From: Alphaproteobacteria bacterium
GTDB taxonomy: Bacteria; Pseudomonadota; Alphaproteobacteria; MPNO01
DNA length: 64,000 bases
Direction: 5' to 3'
Assembly (NCBI GenBank): GCA_965248835.1
Contig: CBDFLJ010000001.1
Location: forward strand, 672,001 to 736,000
Under the pieces are notes generated by a model. The model saw only the letters and a list, made by a program, of their open reading frames with translations, was not told the DNA's origin and did no database searches. The first letter of the stretch is position 1, and the number at the start of each line of letters is the position of its first letter. A program made the position numbers and the translations under genes. Below, one piece after another: positions 51,032 through 63,992 of the stretch.

Positions 51032-51838
51032 GTGCCGCGGTTCAGCGCCAATATTTCCATGCTGTTTGCCGAGCACGACCTGCTGGAGCGGCCCCGGCTT
51101 GCCCGCCAAGCCGGGTTCGGCGCCTTCGAGGTGCAGTTCCCCTACGACCTCCCCGCCGAGGTCTGGCGCGACGTCAAACACCGGGCCGGCCTGCCGATCG
51201 CGCTGTTCAACCTGCCGGCGGGCGACCTGGTCGACGGCGGGCAGGGGCTCGCCGGCGTGCCGGGCCGCGAAGGCGCCTTTCGCGAGGCGCTGGACCTTGC
51301 CGCGGCCTACGCCAAGCTTCTCAAACCGCGTGCGGTAAACGTCCTGGCCGGGACGCCCCGGGGTGAGCGCTCGCGCTGTTTGGAGATTTTCGCGGCGAAC
51401 CTGCGTCGCGCCGCGCAGGTGATGGAAGAGCTCGGCGTAGGCGTTGTAGTCGAGGCGATCAACGACCGCGACCGGCCGGGGTTCCTGGTCTCGACCATCG
51501 AAGAGGCCGTGGCCGCGATCGATCGGGCGGGCCATCCCAACCTGGCCGTCCAGGCGGACCTCTACCATATGCAGATCATGGAGGGAGACCTCACCCGTAC
51601 GCTCGAGCACCGCCTGGACCGCATCGGCCATATCCAGTTCGCCGACGTGCCGGCGCGCAACGAGCCGGGAACAGGAGAGATCAATTTCCCCTTCGTCTTC
51701 GCGGCCCTGGACCGGATCGGCTATGACGGCTGGGTCGGCGCGGAGTACCGGCCTTCGGGTCCGACCGAGACCACGCTCGGCTGGCTCGCGCCCTACCGCC
51801 GCAGCGGGACGCATTCGGTCGGATCCGAAAACGCTTAG
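51032..51838 (+). CDS. hydroxypyruvate isomerase (Hyi) family
   Basis: PRFSANISMLF, EAIN, DLYHMQ, HIQFAD.P.R.EPGTGEIN, GAEY.P. Confidence 0.92.
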   Translation: MPRFSANISMLFAEHDLLERPRLARQAGFGAFEVQFPYDLPAEVWRDVKHRAGLPIALFNLPAGDLVDGGQGLAGVPGREGAFREALDLAAAYAKLLKPRAVNVLAGTPRGERSRCLEIFAANLRRAAQVMEELGVGVVVEAINDRDRPGFLVSTIEEAVAAIDRAGHPNLAVQADLYHMQIMEGDLTRTLEHRLDRIGHIQFADVPARNEPGTGEINFPFVFAALDRIGYDGWVGAEYRPSGPTETTLGWLAPYRRSGTHSVGSENA

Positions 51839-52896
51839 CCCGGCGGGGTGCGCACGCGCGGCATCGCGACGCCCATCCGGTCGGCGTCCTCCCGCAAACG
51901 GTCCCAGGTCCCCGCGGGCAGAGGAATGCCGTCGCGGCGGCGCTCGGCCAGAACCCGGTCGCCGCGTTCGCCGGGGACCAGGATCTCGTCATGGCCTTCC
52001 GCACGGAGCAAGGTTTTCAAGGCGGCGATCAGCGCATCGACATCCTTGCGGTATCGCGCGGGATCGGAAAACGCCGCGATGTCGATCGCCAGCGCCAGCG
52101 CATTCTGGCTGTGCGCGGTCTCCTTGGCGGGCCCGATCGCGGGTGCGATCAGCGGGTTCCCGACCAGCAGGCCGGTCAGGCACTCGAACATCAAGGACAG
52201 CCCGGCCCCTTTCGGCCCGCCCATCGGCATCGGCAGCACGCCCTGCGCCGGGTCGGTGGTCGGCGTTCCCGACCGGTCGAGCGCCCAGCCGGGCTCGAGC
52301 GCCCGGCCGGAATCGCGCGCGAACATGAGCTTGCCCACCGAGGCGACTGCGGTTGCCATGTCGAGCATCAGCGGCGCGTGGTCCATCCCGGGTGCCGCAA
52401 TCGCGATCGGGCTGGTCGCCACGCCTGCAGCCCGCGCGCCGTGATAGGCCATGTTGGGCCGCGAGGTGCCGATCACCACGCCCAGCATGTCGGCCGCCGC
52501 CGCGCGCAGCGCGTAATGGCCGATCGCCGCCATATGGGTGATCCGGCGGACGAACGCAGCGCCGATCCCGCACGCCCGAGCCTTGTCAATCGCGATGTCC
52601 ATGGCGCGCGTCATGCCGACCGGCCCATAGGCCTGATCGGCATCGATCACCGCCGCCGCCGGCATGTCGGCGACGACCCTAATTTCGGGACGCGGATTAA
52701 ACTCGCCGGTTCGGATCCGGCGCAGATAGCCGGGCACGCGCAGCGCGCCGTGCGAATCCACGCCGCGCAGGTTGGCCCAGACCAGCACCTCGGCAATCAG
52801 CCGCGCATCGTCCCGGCTGGTCCCGGCCGCGACGAAAACGGCGGTGATGAACGCCTCCAGATCGCCGGCATCGACCCGTCGCGCTGCGCCGTCCAT
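51835..52896 (-). CDS. Ldh_2 family oxidoreductase
   Basis: RGVDSHG, H..AIG.Y, PIA, LDMAT, GGPKG.GL, PGE. Confidence 0.92.
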   Translation of the reverse strand: MDGAARRVDAGDLEAFITAVFVAAGTSRDDARLIAEVLVWANLRGVDSHGALRVPGYLRRIRTGEFNPRPEIRVVADMPAAAVIDADQAYGPVGMTRAMDIAIDKARACGIGAAFVRRITHMAAIGHYALRAAAADMLGVVIGTSRPNMAYHGARAAGVATSPIAIAAPGMDHAPLMLDMATAVASVGKLMFARDSGRALEPGWALDRSGTPTTDPAQGVLPMPMGGPKGAGLSLMFECLTGLLVGNPLIAPAIGPAKETAHSQNALALAIDIAAFSDPARYRKDVDALIAALKTLLRAEGHDEILVPGERGDRVLAERRRDGIPLPAGTWDRLREDADRMGVAMPRVRTPPG

Positions 52897-52909
52897 CGAG
52901 ACCCGGCGA

Positions 52910-54094
<1,185 letters not shown>

Positions 54095-54892
54095 TCAGCG
54101 CGCGGAAATGCCCTGGGCCTGCACCGCGCAAACCAGCCGCCAGAACGGCTCGGGGTCCTCGACGTGGGCGTTGTGACCGAGCCCCGGCAGGACGACCGCT
54201 TCGGGATCGAAGCCGCGCAGTTGCTCGACCGAGACCATCTGGTCGTGCTCGCCGCAGGACAGCACGATTCGCGCGCGTTGCTTGGCGATCGCGTAAATCT
54301 CCGGCATTTCGATCTCGGCGACAAGACCCGCCCGCATGTCGGCCGCCAGGCGAAACCGGCCGCCGTCCTCGGCGATCCCGCTCTCGGCAAGCGCCGAGCC
54401 GGGCGAGGCCAGCCCGGCCAGCCCCGAGACCTTGAGGAAACGCTCCGCGGCTTCGGCCCTGGTTTCGAACCAGCGCACCGGGGCCTTGATCACCCGCGCG
54501 ATCTGGTCGTGCTCGCCCTCGGCCCAGGCGGCCTTGACGCCCACGGTGACGACGTCGCTCACCGCGACGCCGAACCAGCCGGTCGCCAGCGTGATCCCGA
54601 CCAGCCCGCCCATCGAATGCCCGGCGACGATGACCCGGTCGGCATCGGCGACCAGGGCCGCCATGTCGGCGGCATGCACCGCGATGCCGTAGCGCGCGGC
54701 ATGGTCGGACCGCCCGTGGCCGCGCATGTCGGGGATGATCCAGTGCCCCGGCCAATCCCGCTCCAGATGCTCGCGCAGCCCATCCCAGACCGCGCCGGTG
54801 CCGGCCAGACCGTGGCACAGCAGCAGCGTCGGGCTTCCCGCGCCGCCCTCTTCGACATGAAGCGCGATGCCGCCCACGCGCCGCCGGCTCAT
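54095..54892 (-). CDS. alpha/beta hydrolase
   Basis: CHG, DMRGHGRS, GHSMGG, GHN; ATGA coupling to upstream crotonase. Confidence 0.9.
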   Translation of the reverse strand: MSRRRVGGIALHVEEGGAGSPTLLLCHGLAGTGAVWDGLREHLERDWPGHWIIPDMRGHGRSDHAARYGIAVHAADMAALVADADRVIVAGHSMGGLVGITLATGWFGVAVSDVVTVGVKAAWAEGEHDQIARVIKAPVRWFETRAEAAERFLKVSGLAGLASPGSALAESGIAEDGGRFRLAADMRAGLVAEIEMPEIYAIAKQRARIVLSCGEHDQMVSVEQLRGFDPEAVVLPGLGHNAHVEDPEPFWRLVCAVQAQGISAR

Positions 54893-55746
54893 CGGCCCTT
54901 GAACGCCGGCTTGCGCTTCTCGCGAAACGCGGCATTGCCTTCCTTTGCGTCCTCGGTGGTGATCAGCACCGACTGGCCGAGCCGCTCGATCAGTCGGCCG
55001 GTCTCGGTATCGACGTTCTGGCAGGCATTGATGACGTGCTTGGCCATGCCCAGGGCGAGCGGGGCGCGCTCGGCGAGCACGCGCGCGAAGGCCAGCGTGC
55101 CCGCGCGCAGTTCGGCGGCCGGATAGACCCGGTTGACCAGCCCGATCCGGTGGCCTTCCTCGGCGGAGACCGGCTGGGCGGTCATCATCAGCTCCTTGAC
55201 CCGGCCGATGCCGATCATCTGGATCATCCGCGAGGCCGCGCCGGAAGCCGGGATGACGCCGATATTGTTCTCGGTCAGCACGAAATCCGCGTTCCGGGCG
55301 GCGATCCGAAAATCGCAGCTCGCCGCGATCTCGACCCCGCCGCCGGCGCAGACGCCGTTCACCATTGCGATCACCGGCTTCTCCAGCGCCTCCAGATCGT
55401 CGAGCATCTCGTGGTTGGCCCGCACATAGGCCCGGTACTGCGGCGAGGGCAAGGCGTTCTCGTAGGCGAGGCCGTGGATGTCCCGGCCCGAGCAAAACCC
55501 GCGCCCGGCACCGGTGATGATCAGGACGCGGACCGCCTCGTCGAAGGCGACATCCCACAGCACCTGGCGGATCTCGCGGATCATCTGCTCGTCGAACGCG
55601 TTCAGACGCTCGGGCCGGTCGAGCGTCAGGAGCGCGATCCCGGGTTCGGGCACCTCATAGCGCACCGTCGCGCTTTCGTCGGACCGGTCCAGGAACCCGG
55701 CCGGTCTGCCTTCGGGGGTAAGCCTGACAGTCGGTGCCTTCATCAT
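54889..55746 (-). CDS. enoyl-CoA hydratase/isomerase family
   Basis: RPERLNA, FCSGRD, GGGVE, CDFR, EG..AF.EKR.P.F. Confidence 0.93.
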   Translation of the reverse strand: MMKAPTVRLTPEGRPAGFLDRSDESATVRYEVPEPGIALLTLDRPERLNAFDEQMIREIRQVLWDVAFDEAVRVLIITGAGRGFCSGRDIHGLAYENALPSPQYRAYVRANHEMLDDLEALEKPVIAMVNGVCAGGGVEIAASCDFRIAARNADFVLTENNIGVIPASGAASRMIQMIGIGRVKELMMTAQPVSAEEGHRIGLVNRVYPAAELRAGTLAFARVLAERAPLALGMAKHVINACQNVDTETGRLIERLGQSVLITTEDAKEGNAAFREKRKPAFKGR

Positions 55747-55908
55747 CCCTCGCGCGCGGCTCGACGGCGGTCATTGTGCGGTTTATCGCCGAGCGAGAGC
55801 AATCCGCCCGGCGGCCTTTTCTTTTGACGCTCATCGGGATATGAGAGCCCATCGCATGCGGCGGCGGACGGGGCGCGACCCCGGGGGCAGGAGGAACGGA
55901 CAACCAGG

Positions 55909-56844
55909 ATGGCGATCGGTGGGATCGGTCCGGTCTGTGTGCGCGCGATGCTGGTCGTTGTGCTGTGCGCGCCGTTGTTCGCGGGTTGCGGCGAAAGTCC
56001 GAGCGAGATCCTCGCCCGCGAAAAGCTGCGCGTGGGCGCAAAGATCACCGGGCTGGGCGGGATGATCGACGCCGGCAGGCTGCCCAACACCCGGATCATC
56101 AAGACATATGCCGGCGTGATCGGCGCCGAACGGCCGCAGCTTGCCAAGCTGGTGGGCGAGCTGCGCAAGGAGGCGACGACCCAGGGCCTCAACTTCACCA
56201 ACCTCGGCACCAGGCTCAAGGCGGTCAAAGCCACGCCGCGCGGCAAGCAGGAGACCGACCGGGCGCTCGATGCGATCGTCCGCATCGAAGCCGCCGCCGA
56301 TCCGGTGGTGTTCAACGACTCCCTGGTCGATGTGCTCAACGTGCTGGCCGATCTGTCCGGCGGCAAGCTCGCCCGTATGGAGGGGGCCGCGCGCGAGAGG
56401 CCGGCCGCTCAAGGGGCCGGCAGCCATCTGGTAGGCAACCCGACCTATGGACGTTGGCAGCGCGACAACACCGGGCGCAGCTTCTGGGAATGGTACGGCG
56501 CCTACGCGCTGTTTCGCGATGTTTTCTGGCGGCCGGGGCGGTACCACTACAACGACTGGTACCCGCGCCGCGGCTGGAGCTATTACGGCGATGTCGGCCG
56601 CAACTATTACGGCACCCGGACCGACCAGCGCCGTTGGGGCGAGGCGACGCGGCGCCACCCCAACGTGCCGCGCAAGACCTACCGCAACCTGCGCAGCGAG
56701 CGGCGGCTTTCGACCTACGGCCGCTCCGATACCCGCACCGCCGCGAAGACCACGCGCCGCGCCTCGTCCTATTCGGGCTATGGCTCGTCGGTGCGCGGCA
56801 CCAGCTCCGGCGGGTCGCGCTTCGGCGGGCGGCGCGGCAAATGA
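55909..56844 (+). CDS. putative lipoprotein with aromatic-rich domain and Arg/Ser/Gly-rich tail
   Basis: Lipobox LFAG|C; LVGNP.YG.W...SFWEWYG; C-terminus GSSVRGTSSGGSRFGGRRGK. Confidence 0.85.
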   Translation: MAIGGIGPVCVRAMLVVVLCAPLFAGCGESPSEILAREKLRVGAKITGLGGMIDAGRLPNTRIIKTYAGVIGAERPQLAKLVGELRKEATTQGLNFTNLGTRLKAVKATPRGKQETDRALDAIVRIEAAADPVVFNDSLVDVLNVLADLSGGKLARMEGAARERPAAQGAGSHLVGNPTYGRWQRDNTGRSFWEWYGAYALFRDVFWRPGRYHYNDWYPRRGWSYYGDVGRNYYGTRTDQRRWGEATRRHPNVPRKTYRNLRSERRLSTYGRSDTRTAAKTTRRASSYSGYGSSVRGTSSGGSRFGGRRGK

Positions 56845-56867
56845 TCCGATGAGGGGAGCGTCCTGAC

Positions 56868-57761
56868 ATGGTGAGCGCCGATTTCTCCGGGCCGACGCTG
56901 GTCATGCTGGCCTTGGGGGTGGTGATCGTCTTCGCGGTCCTGTTCAGCGTGCGGCTGCTCTATGGCGCGGCCGCCGGGCTCGATACCACCAGCGAGCTTG
57001 CCGGCAAGGACAATTTCGCCTTTGGCATCGGCCTTGCCGGGATGACGCTGGGCGTGGCGATCATGCTGACCGGGGTTGCCGAGGGCGGATATGCCGCCAG
57101 CATCGGCGAGGAAGTCTCGGCCCTGGTCATCTACGCCGCACTCGGGCTGGTGTTGATGTGGCTGACCCGGTTGATCTTCGACCGCGTGTCGATTCCCGCG
57201 TTCTCGGTCAAGGCCGAGATCCAGAACGGCAACGTCCCGATCGCGATCGTCGAAGCGGGCAACGTGCTGGCAACCGCGGTGATGGTCAGTGCCGTCATGC
57301 GGTGGTCCGAAGGATCGCTCGCCGCGGCCCTGACCGCGGTCTTGGCGGGCTATGTGGTCACCCAGGTGATCCTCACCGCCACCACCTATTACCGGGTCTG
57401 GCTGTTCGGGTTGCGCAACGCCGGCAAGCGGTTCCAGAACGTCGTCCAGGAGGGCAATACCGCACTGGCGCTCCGGTTCGCCGGCTTCCAGATGGGGGTG
57501 GCGCTGGCGGTGACCGCCGCGGCCCAGGTCGTCGTCTATGACCCGGCCGGCGATCCGATCGTCCAGGCGCTGATCTGGGGGGCGTGCTCTTTGGTCCTGG
57601 CTGCGGTCCTGATCGTGCTCAGCCTGCTCGCAGAGCGCTTCGTGCTGCGCAGCATCGACGTGTCCGAAGAGGTCGACCGCCAGAGCAATATCGGCGTCGC
57701 GCTGACCGAGGTCGCGGTCTATGCCGGGATCGGGCTGGTGTTCAACGGGCTGCTGGCCTGA
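56868..57761 (+). CDS. DUF350 (YjfL-like) membrane protein with tandem domains
   Basis: Repeated units ELAGKDNFAFGI / EIQNGNVPIAI / VQEGNTALAL / EVDRQSNIGVAL between TM helices. Confidence 0.85.
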   Translation: MVSADFSGPTLVMLALGVVIVFAVLFSVRLLYGAAAGLDTTSELAGKDNFAFGIGLAGMTLGVAIMLTGVAEGGYAASIGEEVSALVIYAALGLVLMWLTRLIFDRVSIPAFSVKAEIQNGNVPIAIVEAGNVLATAVMVSAVMRWSEGSLAAALTAVLAGYVVTQVILTATTYYRVWLFGLRNAGKRFQNVVQEGNTALALRFAGFQMGVALAVTAAAQVVVYDPAGDPIVQALIWGACSLVLAAVLIVLSLLAERFVLRSIDVSEEVDRQSNIGVALTEVAVYAGIGLVFNGLLA

Positions 57762-57784
57762 GCGCGCGCACCACCCGGGCGGCC

Positions 57785-59491
57785 GTGCGCAGCGCGGTCT
57801 TCGACGACATCGCGGTGATCGTGATGACCGGCGTTCTCGCCGGCTGCGGCCTGATCTACGAATACCTCCTGGCCAGCACCGCCGGGCGCATGCTGGGGGC
57901 GGTCGAAACGGTAATCTTCGCGATGATCGGGGTGATGATCGTCGCGATGGGGATCGGTGCGTTCCTGGCGCGGTTCGTGCCCGCGCCGTTCACCGGCTTC
58001 GCCTGGCTGGAGGCGATCATCGCGGTCTTCGGCGGCGCCTCGGTCCTGCTGCTGGGCGCGGTCACCGCCGCGGTCATCCTGCTGCCGCAGGCAATCGCGG
58101 CGACCTACGGCATGCCGCCCGACCTGGTCCCGCGCGGGTCCCTGGTCACGGTGCTGGATGCGGCAGCCGATATCGCGCCCTACGTCCTCGGAGCGCTGCT
58201 CGGCATCATGGTCGGCATGGAGATCCCGCTGCTCGCGCGGATCCGCCAGAGCTTCCACGCCGATGCGCTGATCCACAACACCGGCACGATCTACGGCGCG
58301 GATTATATCGGCGCCGGGATCGGGGCGGCGCTTTGGGTGGCGGTGATGCTGTCGATGGAGCCGGTGCGCGCGGCCTACCTCACCGCCGGCGTCAACCTCG
58401 TCGTCGGCGTCGGCTTTCTCGTCATCTACCGGCGGCGGGTCCGCCGGTTCGCGCTGGTGCTGCTGCTCCATGCGCTGGCCGGGGTGGGGCTGCTGGCGGT
58501 CGCCCAGGGCGGCACCGACTGGGCGCGGGCGATGGAGGACCTGCTCTACCGGGACACGGTGGTCTATTCCACCAACACCGGGCACCAGCGGATCGCGCTC
58601 ACCCGACGGGTGGTCCATGCCGGTACGCCGCCGGTCTGGAGCCTCTACCTCAACGGCCGGTTGCAGTTCGACTCCTCGGACGAGCACGTCTACCACGCCA
58701 TGCTGACCTATCCGGCGCTCGCCGCGGCGGCCCGGCGGCAGCGCATCCTGGTGATCGGCGGCGGCGACGGGCTTGCGGTGCGCGACATCCTGCGCTGGAA
58801 CCCGCGCGCGGTCGTCGTCCTCGACCTCGATCCCGACCTGGTCGACCTGTTCACCCGCCCGCGCTTCGTCGAAGGCGTATTCGTCAACCGCGCGCTGCTT
58901 GCGCTCAACGGCTTCGCCTTCCGCGATCCACGGGTCAGCGTCCGCTTCGGCGATGCCTTCATCGGCGTCGACGCCCTGCTGCGCGACGGCGAGAAATTCG
59001 ATTCGGTGATCGTCGATCTTCCCGATCCCAGCCACCCCGACCTCGCCCGGCTCTACAGCGTGCGCTTTTATCGGAAGCTCGGCCTGCTGCTGGCCGCCGA
59101 CGGGACGATGGCAATCCAGTCGACCTCGCCCTACTTCGCGCGCGCGGCCTTCCTCAGCATCGGCCGGACGGTCGAGGAAGCCGGCTTCGGCCAGGTCGAC
59201 CAGTATGGCCACAATGTCCCCAGCCTCGGCCAGTGGGGCTGGACGGTGGCAACCCGCCGGGGTCCGTCGGCGCGCGAACGGCTGCGCCGGCTCGATTCTC
59301 TTCCGGTCGATGACGGTTTCACCACCCGCGCGCTGCTGCTCGGGGCGTTCGCGTTTCCCAAGGGCTTTTTCGACGGAAGGGCGGACATCGCGCCGAGCCG
59401 GCTGGCCGATGCCGCGGTCTACCGCTATTACCGGCAAGGCTGGGAGCAGGCGACGGGCCTTTCCGCCGCGCCCGGCAAACAGAGGCCTTGA
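57785..59491 (+). CDS. membrane-anchored polyamine aminopropyltransferase (spermidine synthase-like)
   Basis: N-terminal TM region (CGLIYEY, GMEIPL, YGADYIG); catalytic LYLNGRLQF..DE..YH, LVIGGGDG, LDLD, VDLPDP, LYS..FY, QSTSP. Confidence 0.88.
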   Translation: MRSAVFDDIAVIVMTGVLAGCGLIYEYLLASTAGRMLGAVETVIFAMIGVMIVAMGIGAFLARFVPAPFTGFAWLEAIIAVFGGASVLLLGAVTAAVILLPQAIAATYGMPPDLVPRGSLVTVLDAAADIAPYVLGALLGIMVGMEIPLLARIRQSFHADALIHNTGTIYGADYIGAGIGAALWVAVMLSMEPVRAAYLTAGVNLVVGVGFLVIYRRRVRRFALVLLLHALAGVGLLAVAQGGTDWARAMEDLLYRDTVVYSTNTGHQRIALTRRVVHAGTPPVWSLYLNGRLQFDSSDEHVYHAMLTYPALAAAARRQRILVIGGGDGLAVRDILRWNPRAVVVLDLDPDLVDLFTRPRFVEGVFVNRALLALNGFAFRDPRVSVRFGDAFIGVDALLRDGEKFDSVIVDLPDPSHPDLARLYSVRFYRKLGLLLAADGTMAIQSTSPYFARAAFLSIGRTVEEAGFGQVDQYGHNVPSLGQWGWTVATRRGPSARERLRRLDSLPVDDGFTTRALLLGAFAFPKGFFDGRADIAPSRLADAAVYRYYRQGWEQATGLSAAPGKQRP

Positions 59492-59540
59492 AACCGCGCG
59501 CGGACGCCCCATATTGTGACAAGTCACGAGTGACAGTCAC
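59487..59540 (+). promoter_or_regulatory. sigma32 (RpoH)-type promoter followed by GTGAC/GTCAC operator array
   Basis: CTTGAA(59487)-14 nt-CCCCATAT(59507), then GTGAC-AA-GTCAC-GA-GTGAC-A-GTCAC (59516-59540). Confidence 0.7.
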
Positions 59541-59555
59541 GAAACGGAGGCTCTT

Positions 59556-60173
59556 TTGGCCGATGGACCGGCACGAAAGCCGCTCAGCCCCGCCGCCCGC
59601 AAACGCCGCCAGCGTGAGCGTCTGCAGGCCGCCGGGCTCGCCGCGGTCGAGGTCTGGGTGCCGCCGGAGCATCGCGGCGTCGTGCGCCGTTTCGAACGGT
59701 TGCTGCGGCTGGGCATCGTCCCGCCGATGCCGACCGTCCGCGACATTGACCCCAAAGGAGACCGGACCATGGATCTGAACCTGCTGCGTGAAACGCTGGA
59801 CGAGTACACATCGGAGAACGGTTACACGTTCCAGACCAGCACGCCGGATGGCGAGGCCGGCCTGGAGGTCATCGTCGAGGATCGCGACGAATTCCCGATC
59901 CTGCTGTCGGCCGATGAAGAGCAGACGCTGTGCCTGACCTATCTGTGGGACGAGGCCCAGGTGAAGCCCGAAAAGCGCACCGAACTCTTGACCACCTTGC
60001 TGGAGATGAACGTGCCGCTGCCGCTGTCGTCCTTCGGCAAGGTCGCCGACCGCTACGTGATCTTCGGTGCGCTGGCCGCGACCGCTTCGACCGAGGACCT
60101 GGTGACCGAGATCGAGACCCTGAGCGACAACACCCTCGAGGCGCTCGAGGTCGTCGCCCCTTACCTGAACTAG
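59556..60173 (+). CDS. YjfI/DUF2170-like protein with N-terminal basic putative DNA-binding extension
   Basis: C-terminal Q.LC..YLW, N..LPLSSFG, YVIFGAL, EIETL.DN; N-terminal RKRRQRERLQAAGL..VEVWVP; second RBS and ATG at 59769. Confidence 0.85.
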   Translation: MADGPARKPLSPAARKRRQRERLQAAGLAAVEVWVPPEHRGVVRRFERLLRLGIVPPMPTVRDIDPKGDRTMDLNLLRETLDEYTSENGYTFQTSTPDGEAGLEVIVEDRDEFPILLSADEEQTLCLTYLWDEAQVKPEKRTELLTTLLEMNVPLPLSSFGKVADRYVIFGALAATASTEDLVTEIETLSDNTLEALEVVAPYLN

Positions 60174-60195
60174 CCCAAAGCGTGGAGGAAGAACG

Positions 60196-60888
60196 ATGGC
60201 GATTTTGGCAAAGCTTTTCACCGCGATGCGCGGTGCGGCGACCGAGACCGGCGAAGCGGTCGTCGACCACCAGGCGCTGCGGATTCTGGATCAGGAAATG
60301 CGCGACGCGGACAAGGAGCTGGGCGAGGCGAAATCCCAGCTCACCGAGGTGATGGCCCAGAAGCGCGGCGTCGAGCGCGAGGTCGAGAAGCTGCGCGGCC
60401 AGATCTCCGAGCACGAGGACTACGCGATGAAGGCGCTGGATAAGGGCGATGAGAGCCTGGCCGGTGACGTCGCCGAGCGCATCGCCCAGTTCGAGGAGGA
60501 GCTCAACCTGCAGGAGCAGGCGCTCGCCCAGTACGATGCCGGGGTCAACCAGCTCAAGCGCAGCATCAAGGCGACCGAGCGCAACATCGCCGCGATGCGC
60601 CGCCAGGTCAGCATGGTCAAGGCGACCGAGCGGGTCCAGAAGGCGAGCGCGGCCGCCGGCGCACGGTTCTCCGGCAGCAACACCGCGATCTCCTCGGCCA
60701 CCGAGTCGCTGGAGCGCATCAAGAAGCGCCAGCAGCACCGCTCCGATCGCATGGAGGCGGCCAGCCAGCTCACCGCCGACACCGAGGGCGCGGACCTCGA
60801 CAAGCGGCTGCGCGATGCCGGGATCGTCAGTGCCGGCAAGTCGGGCGCCGAGGCGCTCGCGCGGATCCGCGCCAAGCGGGGCGGATGA
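60196..60888 (+). CDS. PspA/IM30 family protein (YjfJ-like)
   Basis: N-terminal amphipathic MAILAKLFTAMRG, DHQALRILDQEMRD, long coiled coil, ESLERIK, L..AGI. Confidence 0.93.
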   Translation: MAILAKLFTAMRGAATETGEAVVDHQALRILDQEMRDADKELGEAKSQLTEVMAQKRGVEREVEKLRGQISEHEDYAMKALDKGDESLAGDVAERIAQFEEELNLQEQALAQYDAGVNQLKRSIKATERNIAAMRRQVSMVKATERVQKASAAAGARFSGSNTAISSATESLERIKKRQQHRSDRMEAASQLTADTEGADLDKRLRDAGIVSAGKSGAEALARIRAKRGG

Positions 60889-61514
60889 TGTTCGGCCGGC
60901 TTTTCGGCGGGCGCGGCAAGGACGCGCCCGCGCCCGCCGCAAGCCATGCCTGCGACCTTGGCCCGGGCGGCTTCCTCAAGCTCGGTTTCGTCGCACCGGA
61001 GGGGCTCGCGCAAGCCGACCTCCAGGTCACCGGCGTCCATGCGGTGGACCTGGGCAGCGCGGTCCGCCGGGTGCTTGCGGTCGAAGCGATGACGCTCGGC
61101 CGTCTGGAGATGTGGCGCGGCGAGCGCGGCACCATCGCGCTTGCCAGACCGGTCGCGCGGCCGGATGTCGAGCGGCTGTTCGACCTCGATGCCTTCGCCC
61201 GGTTGTTCGACCCCGACGAGCCGGCGAACCTGGTGCTCGAGCGCATCGCCGAGCCCGCCGGCTTCGAGGGCTGGACCGCGCCGACCTACCGCCAGGAGGC
61301 CGCCCAGGAGGCCTATCTTCACGACGCCGACCCGGCGGCGGCCGCGATCGGCGCAACGCTCGAAGACGATGTCCGCACGTTCGATTTCTACCGGCTGGTC
61401 TCGGATCGGCGCGGCCACGCGCTGGAGGCCTGCGTCCATGACGGCGGGCGGACCGACGTGGCGCTGGTGGCGCTGTTGCCGGAGACGGTGGTCGAGGAGG
61501 TCTGGTCGGGCTAG
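60885..61514 (+). CDS. YjfK/DUF2491-like protein
   Basis: MFGRLFG amphipathic start; ATGA coupling to pspA-like gene; position matches yjfK; family call is mainly from context. Confidence 0.6.
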   Translation: MMFGRLFGGRGKDAPAPAASHACDLGPGGFLKLGFVAPEGLAQADLQVTGVHAVDLGSAVRRVLAVEAMTLGRLEMWRGERGTIALARPVARPDVERLFDLDAFARLFDPDEPANLVLERIAEPAGFEGWTAPTYRQEAAQEAYLHDADPAAAAIGATLEDDVRTFDFYRLVSDRRGHALEACVHDGGRTDVALVALLPETVVEEVWSG

Positions 61515-61548
61515 AGTCCGGTCCCGACAAGCTGAACCGGCCGGCACG

Positions 61549-62670
61549 GTGTTCGGAGTCCTACTCCGCGTCTTCCGCCGCCGATTGGCGGCCTCGCGCG
61601 GCTCGGATCTCGTCCGGGCGCGGCGCAACCTGCGCGCGCTGGGCCTTTACCTGGCTGCGGTCGGCGTCCTTCACGTCGTGGCGATGATGGTCTTCGAGGG
61701 GTTGAGCCTGGGCGAGGCCGCGTGGCTGACCGCGACCACGGCGACGACCGTCGGCTACGGCGATGCGGCCGCGGCCACCGAAGGGGGGCGCTGGTCGACG
61801 GTAATCCTGATCTATCTCGGCGGGATCTTCGCGCTCGGCAAGGGAGCCGGCGACTATTTCGACTACCGGGCGAGCCGGCGGGCGCTCAAGGAGCGCGGCC
61901 AATGGAGGTGGAACTTGCAGGATCATGTCCTGTTCATCAACGCGCCCTCCGCGGGTGCGGAGACCTATTTCGAGACCCTGCTGCGGCAGTTCCGCGCGAC
62001 CGGCTGGGGTGAGGACCGCGCGGTGCTGATTCTCTCCCCGGCCTGGCCGACAGGCCTGCCGGCGAGCCTGAGCGCGCTGGGGGTGGTTCATGTCGACGGC
62101 CGCGCCGAGACCACGGGCAGGCTGGATGCGGCCGATGCCCGCAGCGCCGCCGCGGTGGTGATCCTGGCCGCCGACGAGAAGGACCCGATCTCCGACGGGG
62201 TCGGCTTCGACATCGTCCACCGCCTGGTCGAGATGGGCGTGCGGGGCCCGATCATCGCCGAATGCGTCGACGATTTGAACCGCGAGCGGTTGCGCAGCGC
62301 CGGCGCCAACACGGTGACCCGGCCGATGCGCGGCTATCCGGAGATGATGGTCCGTGCGCTGGTCGCGCCGGGCTCGGAAGCGATCATCGAGAACCTGTTC
62401 ACCCGCCATGGCGATGAATGTGTCCGCTACGAGATCCCGGTCGCGGGCGTCACCTGGGGCGGGCTGGCGATTGCGCTGCTGCTCGACGGCGCCGGGACGG
62501 CGATCGGCTATGCCCGCGCAGGCGACGGCGCCATCGTGACCAACCCGCTGCCCGAGGAACAGGTCGACGCCTCGGCGCTTTATGTGATCGTCAAGGAAAA
62601 GCACGAGCGGTCCGTTGAGACCATCGCGCGCCTGGTCGCCGCCGCGGTCTCGGCACGGGCCGCCTCGTGA
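61549..62670 (+). CDS. 2TM potassium channel with RCK (TrkA-N-like) domain
   Basis: Two TM helices around the pore TTATTVGYGD; cytosolic Rossmann-like domain (IIAEC...R.RL..AGA); probable GTG start 61549. Confidence 0.9.
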   Translation: MFGVLLRVFRRRLAASRGSDLVRARRNLRALGLYLAAVGVLHVVAMMVFEGLSLGEAAWLTATTATTVGYGDAAAATEGGRWSTVILIYLGGIFALGKGAGDYFDYRASRRALKERGQWRWNLQDHVLFINAPSAGAETYFETLLRQFRATGWGEDRAVLILSPAWPTGLPASLSALGVVHVDGRAETTGRLDAADARSAAAVVILAADEKDPISDGVGFDIVHRLVEMGVRGPIIAECVDDLNRERLRSAGANTVTRPMRGYPEMMVRALVAPGSEAIIENLFTRHGDECVRYEIPVAGVTWGGLAIALLLDGAGTAIGYARAGDGAIVTNPLPEEQVDASALYVIVKEKHERSVETIARLVAAAVSARAAS

Positions 62671-63539
62671 AGATCGTCGTCACCGGGGGCTCGGGCAAGC
62701 TCGGCCATTGGATCGTCCGCGAGCTGGTCTCGGACGCGGGCGGCCAGGCTGCGCACGAGGTCCTGAACTTCGACCGCGCGCCCGACCCGCTGGGCTCGGA
62801 CACCCGGCTGCTCCGCGGCGACATCACCGATCTCGGCCAGGTCGTGGGCGCGCTCGCCGGTGCGGATGCGGTCATCCACGCCGCCGGCATCCCCACTCAT
62901 TCGGTGGCGCCGAACGAGGTGATCTTCGCGACCAACGCCGTGGGAACCTTCAACGTCCACGAGGCGGCCTGGCGGCTCGGCGTCACCCGTGTCGTCACGC
63001 TGAGCAGCGAGGCGGTGCTGGGCTGGGCACCGGGCGCACGGTCGCGCGAGTTCCTGCCGTCCTACCTGCCGATCGACGAGGACCACCCTTGCGGCGCCCA
63101 GGATGCCTATGGCCTGTCGAAGATCGCGGCCGAGGCGGTCGCGCGGTCGTATACCGCCAAGTGCGGCATGGAGACGGTGCTGATCCGCCCGCCCTGGATC
63201 GCCTCGCGGGAGGAGCTGCTGGAAGTCCGCCGCTGTGGCGGGCGCACGGCCACCGAATTCGGCCCCTGCCACTACATCGAAGTCCGCGACCTTGCGGCGG
63301 CACTGCGCAAGGCCGTCGAGCGGCCGATCCAGGGATGCCAGACGATGTTCGTCGGGGCCGGCGAGAGCACCGTCGCCGAGCCGCTGTCGGAACTCTACCC
63401 CCGCCTGCTGCCCGACATCGGCGACATGGCGGCGGGCCTGACGGGCACCGCGGCCTGGGTCAGCACCGCCCGCGCCCGCCGTGTGCTCGACTGGGCGCCG
63501 CGGCGATCCTGGCGCAACGACCCGCAGACATGGGTCTAG
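62667..63539 (+). CDS. NAD-dependent epimerase/dehydratase
   Basis: VTGGSGKLG, HAAG, N..GT.N, YGLSK; GTGA overlap with channel stop. Confidence 0.92.
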   Translation: MKIVVTGGSGKLGHWIVRELVSDAGGQAAHEVLNFDRAPDPLGSDTRLLRGDITDLGQVVGALAGADAVIHAAGIPTHSVAPNEVIFATNAVGTFNVHEAAWRLGVTRVVTLSSEAVLGWAPGARSREFLPSYLPIDEDHPCGAQDAYGLSKIAAEAVARSYTAKCGMETVLIRPPWIASREELLEVRRCGGRTATEFGPCHYIEVRDLAAALRKAVERPIQGCQTMFVGAGESTVAEPLSELYPRLLPDIGDMAAGLTGTAAWVSTARARRVLDWAPRRSWRNDPQTWV

Positions 63540-63575
63540 GACGGGTTGCGATCGCGCCGGGCCGACCGGAATTCG

Positions 63576-63992
63576 CTATGCGCTTGCGGCGTCCGCCGCG
63601 CCCGCGTAGCTGGTCAGGTCGATGTATTCGAGCATCGTGCCGTCGGGGTCGCGGAAATACGCACGCGGGCCGTTGACCACACCGCCCTGGCGGTCCTCCT
63701 CGAAGGTGATCTCGACGCCGTTCGCCCGCAGGTGGTCAAGCGCCGCCCCGTAGGCCGACGAATCGACCATGAAGGAATGATGGACGCCTTCATGGGTGTC
63801 GAGCACCGAGTTGATCGGCCCCTCGCGAGCAACCAGGATCAGGCACACCCCGCCGGCATCGAGGAAACACAACGCGTTGTTGGGGATGGTGAACAGGTGC
63901 TTGCAGCCGACGATGTCGGTGTAGAACGCGCGGCTTCGGTCAATGTCGGTGACCGGGATACTGAAATGGGCGACGCCCAGGATCTCGACCAT
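63576..63992 (-). CDS. VOC (glyoxalase) family protein
   Basis: HFSIPVTD..RS.AFY, HHSF, YFRDPDG..LE. Confidence 0.92.
   Translation of the reverse strand: MVEILGVAHFSIPVTDIDRSRAFYTDIVGCKHLFTIPNNALCFLDAGGVCLILVAREGPINSVLDTHEGVHHSFMVDSSAYGAALDHLRANGVEITFEEDRQGGVVNGPRAYFRDPDGTMLEYIDLTSYAGAADAASA

Follow-up and report, generated by a model that had tools for sequence, protein, structure and literature searches.

PspA/Vipp1/ESCRT-III proteins are central to membrane repair, and the YjfJ branch of these proteins, together with its polyamine-linked partners, is without an established function. The closest described systems were defined by Ravi et al. (2024, mSystems, PMC11237479), whose text, in the part available, distinguishes three operon groups around a dyad that consists of a CesT/Tir-like DUF2170 protein and a YjfJ-type PspA. 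In the second group, the dyad is joined by a spermidine-synthase-like domain fused to an N-terminal domain of seven transmembrane segments (7TM) and by a DUF350 protein of the 8TM type; a lipoprotein described as novel and a beta-rich protein with DUF4178 complete the set, in some operons together with an RHH factor (example proteins AAN56744.1-AAN56747.1). The third group contains an ATP-grasp ligase, a K+ channel, a 4TM DUF350 protein, DUF1190, and DUF2491. The subject here is a locus in the genome of an Alphaproteobacteria bacterium that can be compared with these groups. It extends from position 55909 to position 63539 of a 64,000-nucleotide stretch of DNA (the window; assembly GCA_965248835.1, contig CBDFLJ010000001.1, positions 672,001 to 736,000) and contains eight open reading frames (ORFs), designated g1 to g8.

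Ravi et al. proposed that what PspA monitors is either the level of polyamines or the aminopropylation of other substrates, citing Li et al. 2019 for the latter (PMC11237479, text available in part). In Pseudomonas aeruginosa, a bacA mutant accumulates the other Bac proteins, which is experimental support for a negative control of the bac operon by BacA; an interaction between BacA and BacB is cited by the authors as unpublished (PMC10948618, text available in part). In an E. coli heat-evolution study, yjfIJKL was switched on (PMC12492005, likewise in part). The comparative genomics of Ravi et al., the bac work, and this heat-evolution study were the only sources on the YjfJ branch in the literature searched, and the names DUF4178 and Ctha_1186 occurred there only in Ravi et al., as far as the texts were available.

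Judged by its genes and their order, the locus is a lineage-specific variant of the second group, that is, of a published operon class without an established function. The initial annotation, which knew such neighborhoods from comparative genomics but no established function for them, had treated it as one eight-gene unit. The kind of cluster is not an unknown one, as it matches the second group described in the available text of Ravi et al. The single unit gives way to a predicted, conserved promoter and operator that split the genes and to the location of the two parts on different contigs in all four genomes checked. The promoter and palindromes in the g3-g4 gap, together with the separation of the two parts in other genomes, indicate that the locus is made of two modules. 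Module A (g1 to g3) encodes a lipoprotein, a DUF350 protein, and a membrane-embedded aminopropyltransferase (hereafter, TM-enzyme), and module B (g4 to g7) encodes the dyad, a beta-rich protein, and a K+ channel.

Two modules in a conserved gene neighborhood

Related loci were collected by a profile search with g6 in a species-representative genome collection. The search returned 10 loci, all in metagenome-assembled genomes titled Alphaproteobacteria or Rhodospirillaceae. The synteny of g1 to g6 was kept in nine of them, and the tenth (L009) carried g4 to g6 alone. A sample of 401 genomes from the phylum contained DUF2170 in 34 genomes, and 34 DUF2170 loci outside the window's genome were fetched. 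Ten of these encoded the TM-enzyme, one was cut by a contig end, and 13 carried a YjfC-type ligase; the remaining loci had only the dyad and a g6-type gene (four), only the dyad (four), or DUF2170 alone (two). The gene order of the window recurred in distant Pseudomonadota at 31-54% identity. The initial annotation had called for a check of neighborhood co-occurrence. Across genomes, genes for a membrane-bound aminopropyltransferase, a DUF350 protein, and a lipoprotein are indeed linked to the dyad, in the nine close loci and in 10 of the 34 fetched ones.

The eight genes are co-oriented and closely packed, as had been described. The junctions measure 23 nucleotides (nt) for g1-g2, ~23 nt or an overlap for g2-g3, where the start of g3 is uncertain, 64 nt for g3-g4, 22 nt for g4-g5, and 34 nt for g6-g7; 4-nt overlaps join g5 to g6 (ATGA) and g7 to g8 (start/stop). 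The G+C fraction is 0.65-0.72. On the evidence of synteny, the arrangement exceeds chance, and seven of the genes, without the epimerase g8, make up a conserved unit.

The g3-g4 gap carries the candidate control region of module B. A scan of positions 55600-63800 (8.2 kb) returned TTGAAA-16-CATATT as the sole promoter-like site, in two overlapping calls with a common -35 (shuffle mean 0.4), and found none 5' of g1. The -35 and -10 hexamers were conserved in 8 of the 10 related loci within variable flanks. The site is followed by the tandem palindromes GTGACAAGTCAC and GTGACAGTCAC, which gave two matches in the window versus 0.21 expected, a count reached in 1 of 100 shuffles. In the genome (4.89 Mb searched; 100% complete, 9.5% contamination), 14 single palindrome sites were found, and the g3-g4 gap holds the sole adjacent pair. 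The palindrome bases were invariant in nine aligned sequences, and the flanks varied. A block 5' of g1 was common to the four closest sequences, a comparison too shallow to interpret.

The two modules also occur apart. The dyad with g6 was present without module A in L009 and in four sample loci, and each of these four sample genomes encoded a full-length TM-enzyme (607-634 bits) on another contig. In the 401-genome sample, 43 genomes encoded the TM-enzyme and 34 encoded DUF2170; the two were found together in 17, compared with ~3.6 expected if they were independent, although the genomes are related and thus not independent. DUF2170 was missing from 26 of the 43 TM-enzyme genomes, so module A does not require the dyad. 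The halves would therefore be independently promoted, from a promoter that is predicted, yet co-inherited. Independent regulation of the two halves had been named at the outset as an argument against a joint system; g4 to g7 do have a predicted promoter of their own, but the modules still co-occur. The features are collected in Table 1.

Table 1. Features of the locus and its flanks, in window coordinates
Feature	Position	Strand	Basis
g1, lipoprotein, 311 amino acids	55909..56844	+	ORF; lipobox FAGC 55978-55989; Ser/Arg/Gly-rich basic tail; terminal Gly-Lys 56836-56841
g2, tandem DUF350 membrane protein, 297 amino acids, ~8 TM	56868..57761	+	PF03994 112.4 bits, 2 stretches; hydropathy
g3, 7TM domain fused to spermidine-synthase-like aminopropyltransferase	57785..59491	+	NF002956 553 bits; PF01564 89.4 bits
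Sigma-70-like promoter TTGAAA-16-CATATT, predicted, 5' of g4	59488..59515	+	Promoter scan; conserved hexamers
Tandem palindromes GTGACAAGTCAC and GTGACAGTCAC, candidate operator	59516..59540		Pattern count versus shuffles; invariant bases
g4, DUF2170 (CesT/Tir-like) with 72-residue N-terminal MazE/RHH-like extension	59556..60173	+	PF09938 100.3 bits
g5, YjfJ-type PspA/IM30, 230 amino acids	60196..60888	+	PF04012 145.9 bits
g6, beta-rich DUF4178/DUF2491-like protein, 209 amino acids	60885..61514	+	No Pfam/NCBIfam family; AlphaFold 2 model; distant relatives
g7, MthK-like 2TM K+ channel with RCK-like C-terminal domain, 373 amino acids	61549..62670	+	PF07885; TVGYGD 61747-61764; 1lnq
g8, SDR-type NAD epimerase/dehydratase	62667..63539	+	PF01370 88.3 bits; neighbor, not conserved member
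Flanking metabolic genes	51835-55746 and 63576-63992	-	Opposite orientation to g1-g8

The upstream flank encodes Ldh_2, a Zn-dependent alcohol dehydrogenase, an alpha/beta hydrolase, and an enoyl-CoA hydratase, and the downstream flank a glyoxalase-fold gene. The hydratase and the glyoxalase-fold gene also adjoin the cluster in L006, the closest relative.

The PspA module and the proposed mechanism

The g5 product matched PF04012 over residues 3-228 (gathering cut-off 33.9) and shared 34% identity with YjfJ of E. coli (E = 2e-37). Its score on TIGR02977, the model for canonical PspA, was only 29.1 bits versus a cut-off of 242.95. By these scores g5 belongs to the YjfJ branch rather than to canonical PspA. 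It is the sole PspA of the window's genome in profile searches, and no PspB or PspC was found across that genome (0 matches for PF06667 and PF04024). Both the PspA/IM30 assignment and the description of the module as non-canonical thus stand.

The DUF2170 assignment of g4, which had been read as YjfI-like, is likewise firm, as the score on PF09938 is well above the cut-off of 27. The protein also matched the BacA crystal chain 8q8o (E = 3.6e-9) and, at 76 bits and nearly full length, the NCBIfam BacA model, whose cut-off it did not reach. In an AlphaFold 2 model, the domain consists of a helix (residues 74-82), four strands, a second helix (138-151), two strands, and a third helix (179-203), with a predicted local distance difference test (pLDDT) score of 78-89. 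What lies upstream of this domain? Residues 1-72 alone gave 20.4 bits on PF11455 (MazE-like; cut-off 22, E = 5e-4), and they were modeled as helix-extended-helix, followed by a disordered linker and then the CesT-like domain. The extension motif (59598-59675) was in frame in all 10 related loci and in eight further DUF2170 loci, and R20, G27, and W34 were invariant in 16 sequences. By eye, the extension-bearing DUF2170 genes of L046, L047, L052, and L049-L051 are preceded by different repeats, for example TTACATGT/ACATGTAA pairs or GTTACGCGTTAC; such differences would fit operators that co-vary with g4-type extensions.

A small ORF of 99-121 amino acids is conserved 3' of the g6 homologue in 11 other loci of the second group or with dyad and g6 (L058, L059, L062, L065-L071, L075; for example L067:7987-8310, minus strand). 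None was present between g6 and the channel in the window. The family has KRPRLT.SL and DY among its invariant features, no Pfam match above cut-off, and no PDB sequence match (best E = 0.43). By eye, the ORF could be read as a tandem RHH, and it is possibly the gene that Ravi et al. described as an RHH factor.

The g6 product gave no Pfam match even at E ≤ 10, neither to PF13785 (DUF4178) nor to PF10679 (DUF2491). Its relatives, each of ~210 amino acids, number 76 cluster representatives that are close and 241 that are more distant. Three of 41 distant representatives scanned matched DUF4178 (one above cut-off), and none matched DUF2491. Among its 30 nearest clusters in the Atlas, 11 were in the DUF4178-carrying set and 14 in the DUF2491-carrying set (best 0.92). 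The YjfK-like reading given at first retains an N-terminal link, because hhalign aligned g6 with the YjfK family at 87.8% probability (E = 3.3e-6) over only 68 N-terminal columns, but it lacks a DUF2491 match, and g6 appears nearer to DUF4178. The AlphaFold 2 model is beta-rich (pLDDT 88.7). No PDB fold was matched by Foldseek at E ≤ 0.001 (best 1.3e-2) or in a wide VIA-align search at Z ≥ 5 (best 4.6), and the PDB sequence profile search returned none below E = 1.

The gene context of g6 is clearer. A g6-like protein always adjoined PspA in 15 sampled loci and was never in ligase loci; YjfK was present in 11 of the 13 ligase loci and never beside the TM-enzyme. By eye, the N-terminus of g6 (MMFGRLFG...) resembles that of the neighboring PspA (MAILAKLF...), also across homologues. 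In a three-chain prediction with the g4 domain and PspA, partner g6 scored 0.60 (runs 0.60, 0.59, and 0.60), compared with 0.00 for the best of three controls, which included one with PspA replaced. The runs agreed in at least 70% of contacts, and the partner had a pLDDT of at least 81. Of 157 solved complexes used for calibration, 116 reached the mark, as did 2 of 215 mismatched pairs; scores no higher than 0.60 were obtained for only 18 of the 157 solved complexes and for both passing mismatches, and the present run departs from the calibration in its own alignments and its three chains. The prediction lends weak support to g6 as a partner of PspA and the g4 domain. A role of g6 as a channel-specific partner was considered and dropped, because the E. 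coli YjfK operon has no channel and most loci of the second group have g6 without one.

The start of g7 is GTG at 61549, not 61141 as initially placed. Its pore scored 36.3-37 bits on PF07885 (Ion_trans_2; cut-off 22.5). The protein aligned with MthK (1lnq) over pore and RCK, residues 35-331 versus 27-305, a weak match (E = 9e-7, 31.3 bits). On Pfam models, the RCK part stayed below threshold (TrkA_N E = 0.23, Slo-like_RCK E = 0.06). Thus, of the original description as a TVGYGD channel with an RCK domain, the filter and the pore family hold, but the start does not, and the RCK domain stays below the Pfam cut-offs, with the MthK alignment in its favor. The channel was present as the last gene of the unit in 8 of the 10 related loci. 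ORFs with a filter motif were also found near the dyad in 9 of the 13 third-group (ligase) loci, in 2 of the 11 other second-group loci, and in one locus with DUF2170 only. The third-group channels share 23-25% full-length identity with g7, and the two other second-group channels differ in architecture (a 271-residue 6TM type and a 157-residue 2TM type). The linkage to a K+ channel proposed at the outset thus recurs, and the repeated appearance of channels of different types speaks for a genuine link to K+ flux, which does not extend by itself to gating by polyamines. In L073 (9776-11861), a DUF2170 gene without a detectable PspA neighbor lies ~1.1 kb from a TVGYGD ORF of ~200-280 amino acids.

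The epimerase g8, which had been included as a coupled member, fares differently. Its family and its 4-nt overlap with g7 are as described, but it was found in only 2 of the 10 related loci, at full length in L007 and as a fragment in L006. The next large ORFs past the channel are convergent, on the opposite strand, in L005, L008, L011, and L012. For these reasons g8 was rejected as a member of the system.

These observations bear on the model that accompanied the initial annotation, in which all eight genes form a co-regulated envelope-stress unit and a free polyamine or an aminopropylated lipid stabilizes the membrane or gates the channel as PspA remodels it. Polyamines block eukaryotic inward-rectifier K+ channels, which is a precedent for such gating. 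The genes are co-oriented and tightly spaced, channels adjoin dyads with two unrelated polyamine enzymes (the 9 of 13 ATP-grasp and 8 of 10 related loci above), and a monitoring of polyamines was proposed by Ravi et al. (PMC11237479, text available in part). However, the predicted internal promoter and operator are conserved, the modules are on separate contigs in all four genomes checked, the epimerase is rarely kept, and the channel is missing from 9 of the 11 other second-group loci. Moreover, the RCK-like domain resembles that of Ca2+-gated MthK, for which no polyamine site is known, and a separate speD-speE pair already supplies spermidine. The eight-gene model is considered improbable.

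The two-module scheme, taken in full, is given slightly better than even chances. Taking together the gene families, the conserved gene order, the promoter/operator footprint, and the joint occurrence of the two modules, we infer the following catalytic, regulatory, and binding steps. In module A, with its lipoprotein and 8TM DUF350 protein, the 7TM-fused aminopropyltransferase would depend on decarboxylated S-adenosylmethionine (dcSAM). It most likely moves an aminopropyl group to a membrane or envelope acceptor and not to bulk putrescine, because a separate speD-speE pair is encoded elsewhere in the genome. Module B would be transcribed from its own sigma-70-type promoter, overlapped by the two palindromes. 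The MazE/RHH-like N-terminus of g4 probably binds the palindromes and represses module B, and the chaperone-like domain of the same protein is likely to hold PspA; expression would then change when PspA is lost to a damaged membrane, as the analogies with BacA and PspA-PspF suggest. PspA would then coat or remodel the inner membrane, and the translationally coupled, DUF4178-like g6 would work with it. The MthK-like channel would be a lineage-specific accessory that tunes K+ flux during the response, and the epimerase would lie outside the system.

Several observations weigh against this scheme. L012 and L013 retain the genes without the promoter hexamers or palindromes. No terminator-like site above shuffle expectation was found in the g3-g4 gap, so read-through from module A is possible, and 26 of the 43 TM-enzyme genomes do without DUF2170. 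The g4 extension is under the Pfam cut-off, is modeled at a pLDDT of only ~65, and did not align with the small-ORF family (hhalign probability 0.1%). The complex prediction with g6 gives weak support, and 2 of 10 close relatives, like most distant second-group loci, do without a channel. Finally, g3 retains every motif of ordinary spermidine synthases, so it may still make spermidine.

The membrane aminopropyltransferase and the lysine-ended lipoprotein

The g3 product exceeded the equivalog cut-off (472) of NF002956 (PRK03612), and the best PDB match of its enzyme domain, 7xif (E = 6.2e-22), is to the solved aminopropyltransferases. Both motifs noted initially, GGGDG (58757-58771) and DLPDP (59015-59029), are intact, and the reading as a multi-TM aminopropyltransferase is sound. 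In aminopropyltransferases, GGGDG binds dcSAM and D-x-x-D-P is catalytic. The frame is open from 57584, and the first standard start past the g2 stop is GTG at 57785; the true start is uncertain.

Does g3 simply make spermidine? As a membrane-anchored housekeeping spermidine synthase, whose position beside PspA genes would be functionally meaningless, it would be expected to match the polyamine aminopropyltransferase equivalog with intact catalytic motifs, as it does, and the 26 TM-enzyme genomes without DUF2170 are compatible with such a role. However, a canonical speD-speE pair is already present on contig 2 of the genome (C2:42272-43317), so g3 is probably not the bulk spermidine synthase. 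Furthermore, enzyme and DUF2170 occur together in 17 genomes versus ~3.6 expected, and the lipoprotein-DUF350-enzyme-dyad order persists at 31-54% identity. A housekeeping role without any link to the neighbors is thus extremely improbable. Fusions of a 7TM domain and a spermidine synthase, the subject of Li et al. 2019, reportedly fail to complement an E. coli speE deletion.

The polyamine gene context also identifies the donor. A speD gene adjoined the second-group operon in 5 of 10 second-group genomes checked and was present somewhere in the genome in 7 of 10. This context clearly points to dcSAM as the aminopropyl donor of g3. The S-adenosylmethionine decarboxylase genes directly beside the operon (PF02675, 112-119 bits) are those of L074, L075, L076, L062, and L071 (genomes G267, G041, G217, G073, and G237).

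The orientation of the enzyme in the membrane can be read from loop charges. In 50 TM-enzyme homologues, the number of lysines and arginines per loop alternated (1.76, 0.42, 1.80, 0.30, 3.00, 0.14, 1.62), and the 25 residues past TM7 were net acidic. Under the positive-inside rule, this pattern would place the catalytic domain outside the cytoplasm, in the periplasm, provided that TM7 truly spans the membrane. Of the segments, TM7 has the lowest hydrophobicity (mean 1.21), which counts against a periplasmic domain. Conserved acidic residues were noted by eye within the membrane domain (YEYLL, GMEIPL, GADYIG).

The lipoprotein g1 matched no Pfam or NCBIfam family in profile searches. Its homologues, at 29-100% identity in the alignment, ended in lysine in 118 of 118 clusters and in Gly-Lys in 117, and 96 of the 118 had a lipobox within the first 70 residues. 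The tail is otherwise of low complexity (S 26%, R 17%, G 15%). All 16 homologues taken from fetched loci ended in GK, as did the contig-truncated copy of L007, and GK-ended ORFs adjoined the tandem DUF350 gene and the TM-enzyme in all 17 loci where the contig permits the check. Such tails are not confined to lipoproteins. Among 30 TM-enzyme loci without a nearby dyad, 10 encoded a Gly/Ser-tailed protein ending in lysine, compared with 0 of 19 control loci. Most of these proteins have the architecture ZnR-DUF4178-ZnR-DUF4178-TM-tail and end in ...GGxHK. In other words, a g6-type domain and a lysine-ended extracytoplasmic tail are joined in one polypeptide. DUF4178-type proteins were encoded in 16 of the 30 loci, and seven of them end in ...HK. 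Zinc-ribbon/two-DUF4178/one-TM proteins of ~500-640 amino acids were seen near dyad-less TM-enzyme genes in L100, L101, L108, L109, L110, L112, and L114, with Cys-containing Gly/Ser tails ending ...GGxHK (for example L110:10794-12392, minus strand). Related proteins of the alphaproteobacterial loci L088-L092 have acidic tails instead.

These features raise the question of what the terminal lysine is for. One possible answer is that a periplasmic g3 domain takes dcSAM through its own acidic-lined membrane domain and aminopropylates the invariant C-terminal lysine of the lipoprotein. A polyamine-like cationic end would thereby be built on an envelope protein, and the cytoplasmic PspA/DUF4178/DUF2170 module and the channel would, in step with the modification, respond to the membrane or protect it. 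A chemically comparable end may be produced in a different way in sister systems, where YjfC/YgiC peptide-spermidine ligases go with DUF1190 tails that end in Gly. This lysine-acceptor reading is unlikely; it is left open because of the lysine end in 118 of 118 clusters, the tailed proteins in 10 of 30 versus 0 of 19 loci, and the alternation of loop charges. The GK lipoprotein is missing from 3 of 10 sampled dyad-linked TM-enzyme loci, other DUF4178 fusion proteins carry acidic or other tail ends, and we know of no periplasmic dcSAM-dependent enzyme, all of which count against it.

A terminal lysine could also serve as an anchor. The link between Lpp (Braun's lipoprotein) and peptidoglycan runs through a C-terminal lysine. 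Lpp is covalently tethered to the peptidoglycan layer, and in Salmonella there is a paralogue with the C-terminus -RICK-COOH (PMC12681736, PMC13712963, texts available in part). By analogy, g1 would tether envelope layers and the enzyme would act elsewhere, in keeping with the lysine end of all 118 homologue clusters of an exported lipoprotein. However, g1 has no sequence similarity to Lpp, and its tail is long and disordered rather than a coiled coil. The lysine-ended lipoprotein was seen nowhere but next to DUF350 and the TM-enzyme (all 17 loci where the contig permits the check), a link that a general tether does not need, and similar lysine-ended tails are found on inner-membrane DUF4178 fusion proteins near TM-enzymes. 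An attachment to peptidoglycan is thus very unlikely.

The other module A assignments can be stated briefly. The lipobox and basic Gly/Ser/Arg tail initially described for g1 are present, but g1 is not a DUF1190/YjfM protein: BLASTP gave E = 59, hhalign covered only the signal peptide and lipobox (27 columns), and an Atlas lead (0.76) was too weak to be used. A Ser/Gly/Arg-rich tail is common to g1 and DUF1190 proteins. The tandem DUF350 reading of g2 is confirmed, and its two stretches are the sole PF03994 matches in the genome. Neither speD nor a Gsp ligase had been seen in the window, and both sit on contig 2. There, a DUF1190 lipoprotein (PF06693, 133.6 bits; tail ...TSRGGFGKSARGYGSVAG) is encoded directly 5' of a GSP_synth ATP-grasp ligase (PF03738, 496 bits; 50% identity to E. 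coli YjfC) at L087:6961-8700, minus strand (G000:C2:369961-371700). The pair resembles the ygiBC type and is without any PspA dyad.

Comparison with described systems

The locus offers experimental handles on the YjfJ branch: a predicted promoter/operator with a candidate autoregulator, modules that are separable yet co-inherited, recurrent channel recruitment, and an invariant lipoprotein lysine as a candidate acceptor or anchoring site. If the lysine were indeed an acceptor, both the protein modification and this use of dcSAM would be new; otherwise, the locus adds one more ordinary case to a known, unsolved operon class.

In the canonical pspF-pspABCDE system, the effector is likewise of the PspA/IM30 family, and the likely logic, a regulator restrained through PspA, is the same. 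However, the window's genome has no detected PspB or PspC, and g5 scores 29 bits on the canonical model versus a cut-off of 243. Furthermore, in place of an AAA+ sigma-54 activator, the window has as its candidate regulator a small, putatively DNA-binding extension fused to a chaperone-like protein. The bacABCDEF operon of P. aeruginosa resembles module B more closely in that the dyad comes first, with BacA as the DUF2170 protein, matched by g4 (8q8o), and BacB as the PspA-like protein. In contrast, according to the authors no spermidine synthase is encoded in or near bac, the promoter proposed there is of the sigma-54 type, whereas the one predicted in the window is sigma-70-like, and the biofilm and rhamnolipid phenotypes belong to another organism (PMC10948618, text available in part).

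E. coli yjfIJKLMC (NC_000913.3, 4410133-4414191) represents the third group. It shares with the window a DUF2170 protein (YjfI), a PspA (YjfJ, 34% identity), DUF350, a protein of ~215 amino acids with a common N-terminal FxxLFG, and a lipoprotein with a Ser/Gly/Arg tail. The polyamine enzyme differs: E. coli has the ATP-grasp peptide-spermidine ligase YjfC, whereas the window has an aminopropyltransferase and no ATP-grasp GspS-like ligase in the cluster, the genome's only homologue being the one on contig 2. Moreover, DUF350 is single in E. coli but tandem in the window, and the DUF1190 lipoprotein ends in GG or GS whereas g1 ends in GK. Outside E. coli, whose operon has no channel gene, many versions of the third group carry an MthK-like channel, as the window does. 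MthK itself (1lnq, a Ca2+-gated 2TM channel) agrees with g7 in architecture, length, TVGYGD filter, and alignment over pore and RCK; the likeness of g7, known here from its sequence, is limited by the weak match and by an RCK domain under the Pfam thresholds.

The second group of Ravi et al. is the closest relative. Dyad, 7TM-fused enzyme, and 8TM DUF350 protein are the same, a lipoprotein and a beta-rich intracellular protein of putative DUF4178 type are likewise present, and the sampled loci match the order given in the available text. As a candidate for the lipoprotein with the 'Ctha_1186 domain', g1 carries a lipobox, and in distant loci its homologues occupy the corresponding operon position. 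Three features differ. The window adds a K+ channel, as do 8 of 10 related loci, whereas the available text names a channel only in the third group; a channel-bearing variant is thus new against that text, although the supplementary tables could already list such variants. The window has no separate small RHH gene, and its DUF2170 protein bears a MazE/RHH-like extension instead. Lastly, a predicted promoter and candidate operator separate the enzyme from the dyad (PMC11237479). What is new here is therefore the appended channel, the regulator-like DUF2170 extension, and an explicit predicted promoter/operator, and the invariant C-terminal lysine together with the predicted outward-facing topology suggests new leads that make the acceptor of the enzyme experimentally approachable.

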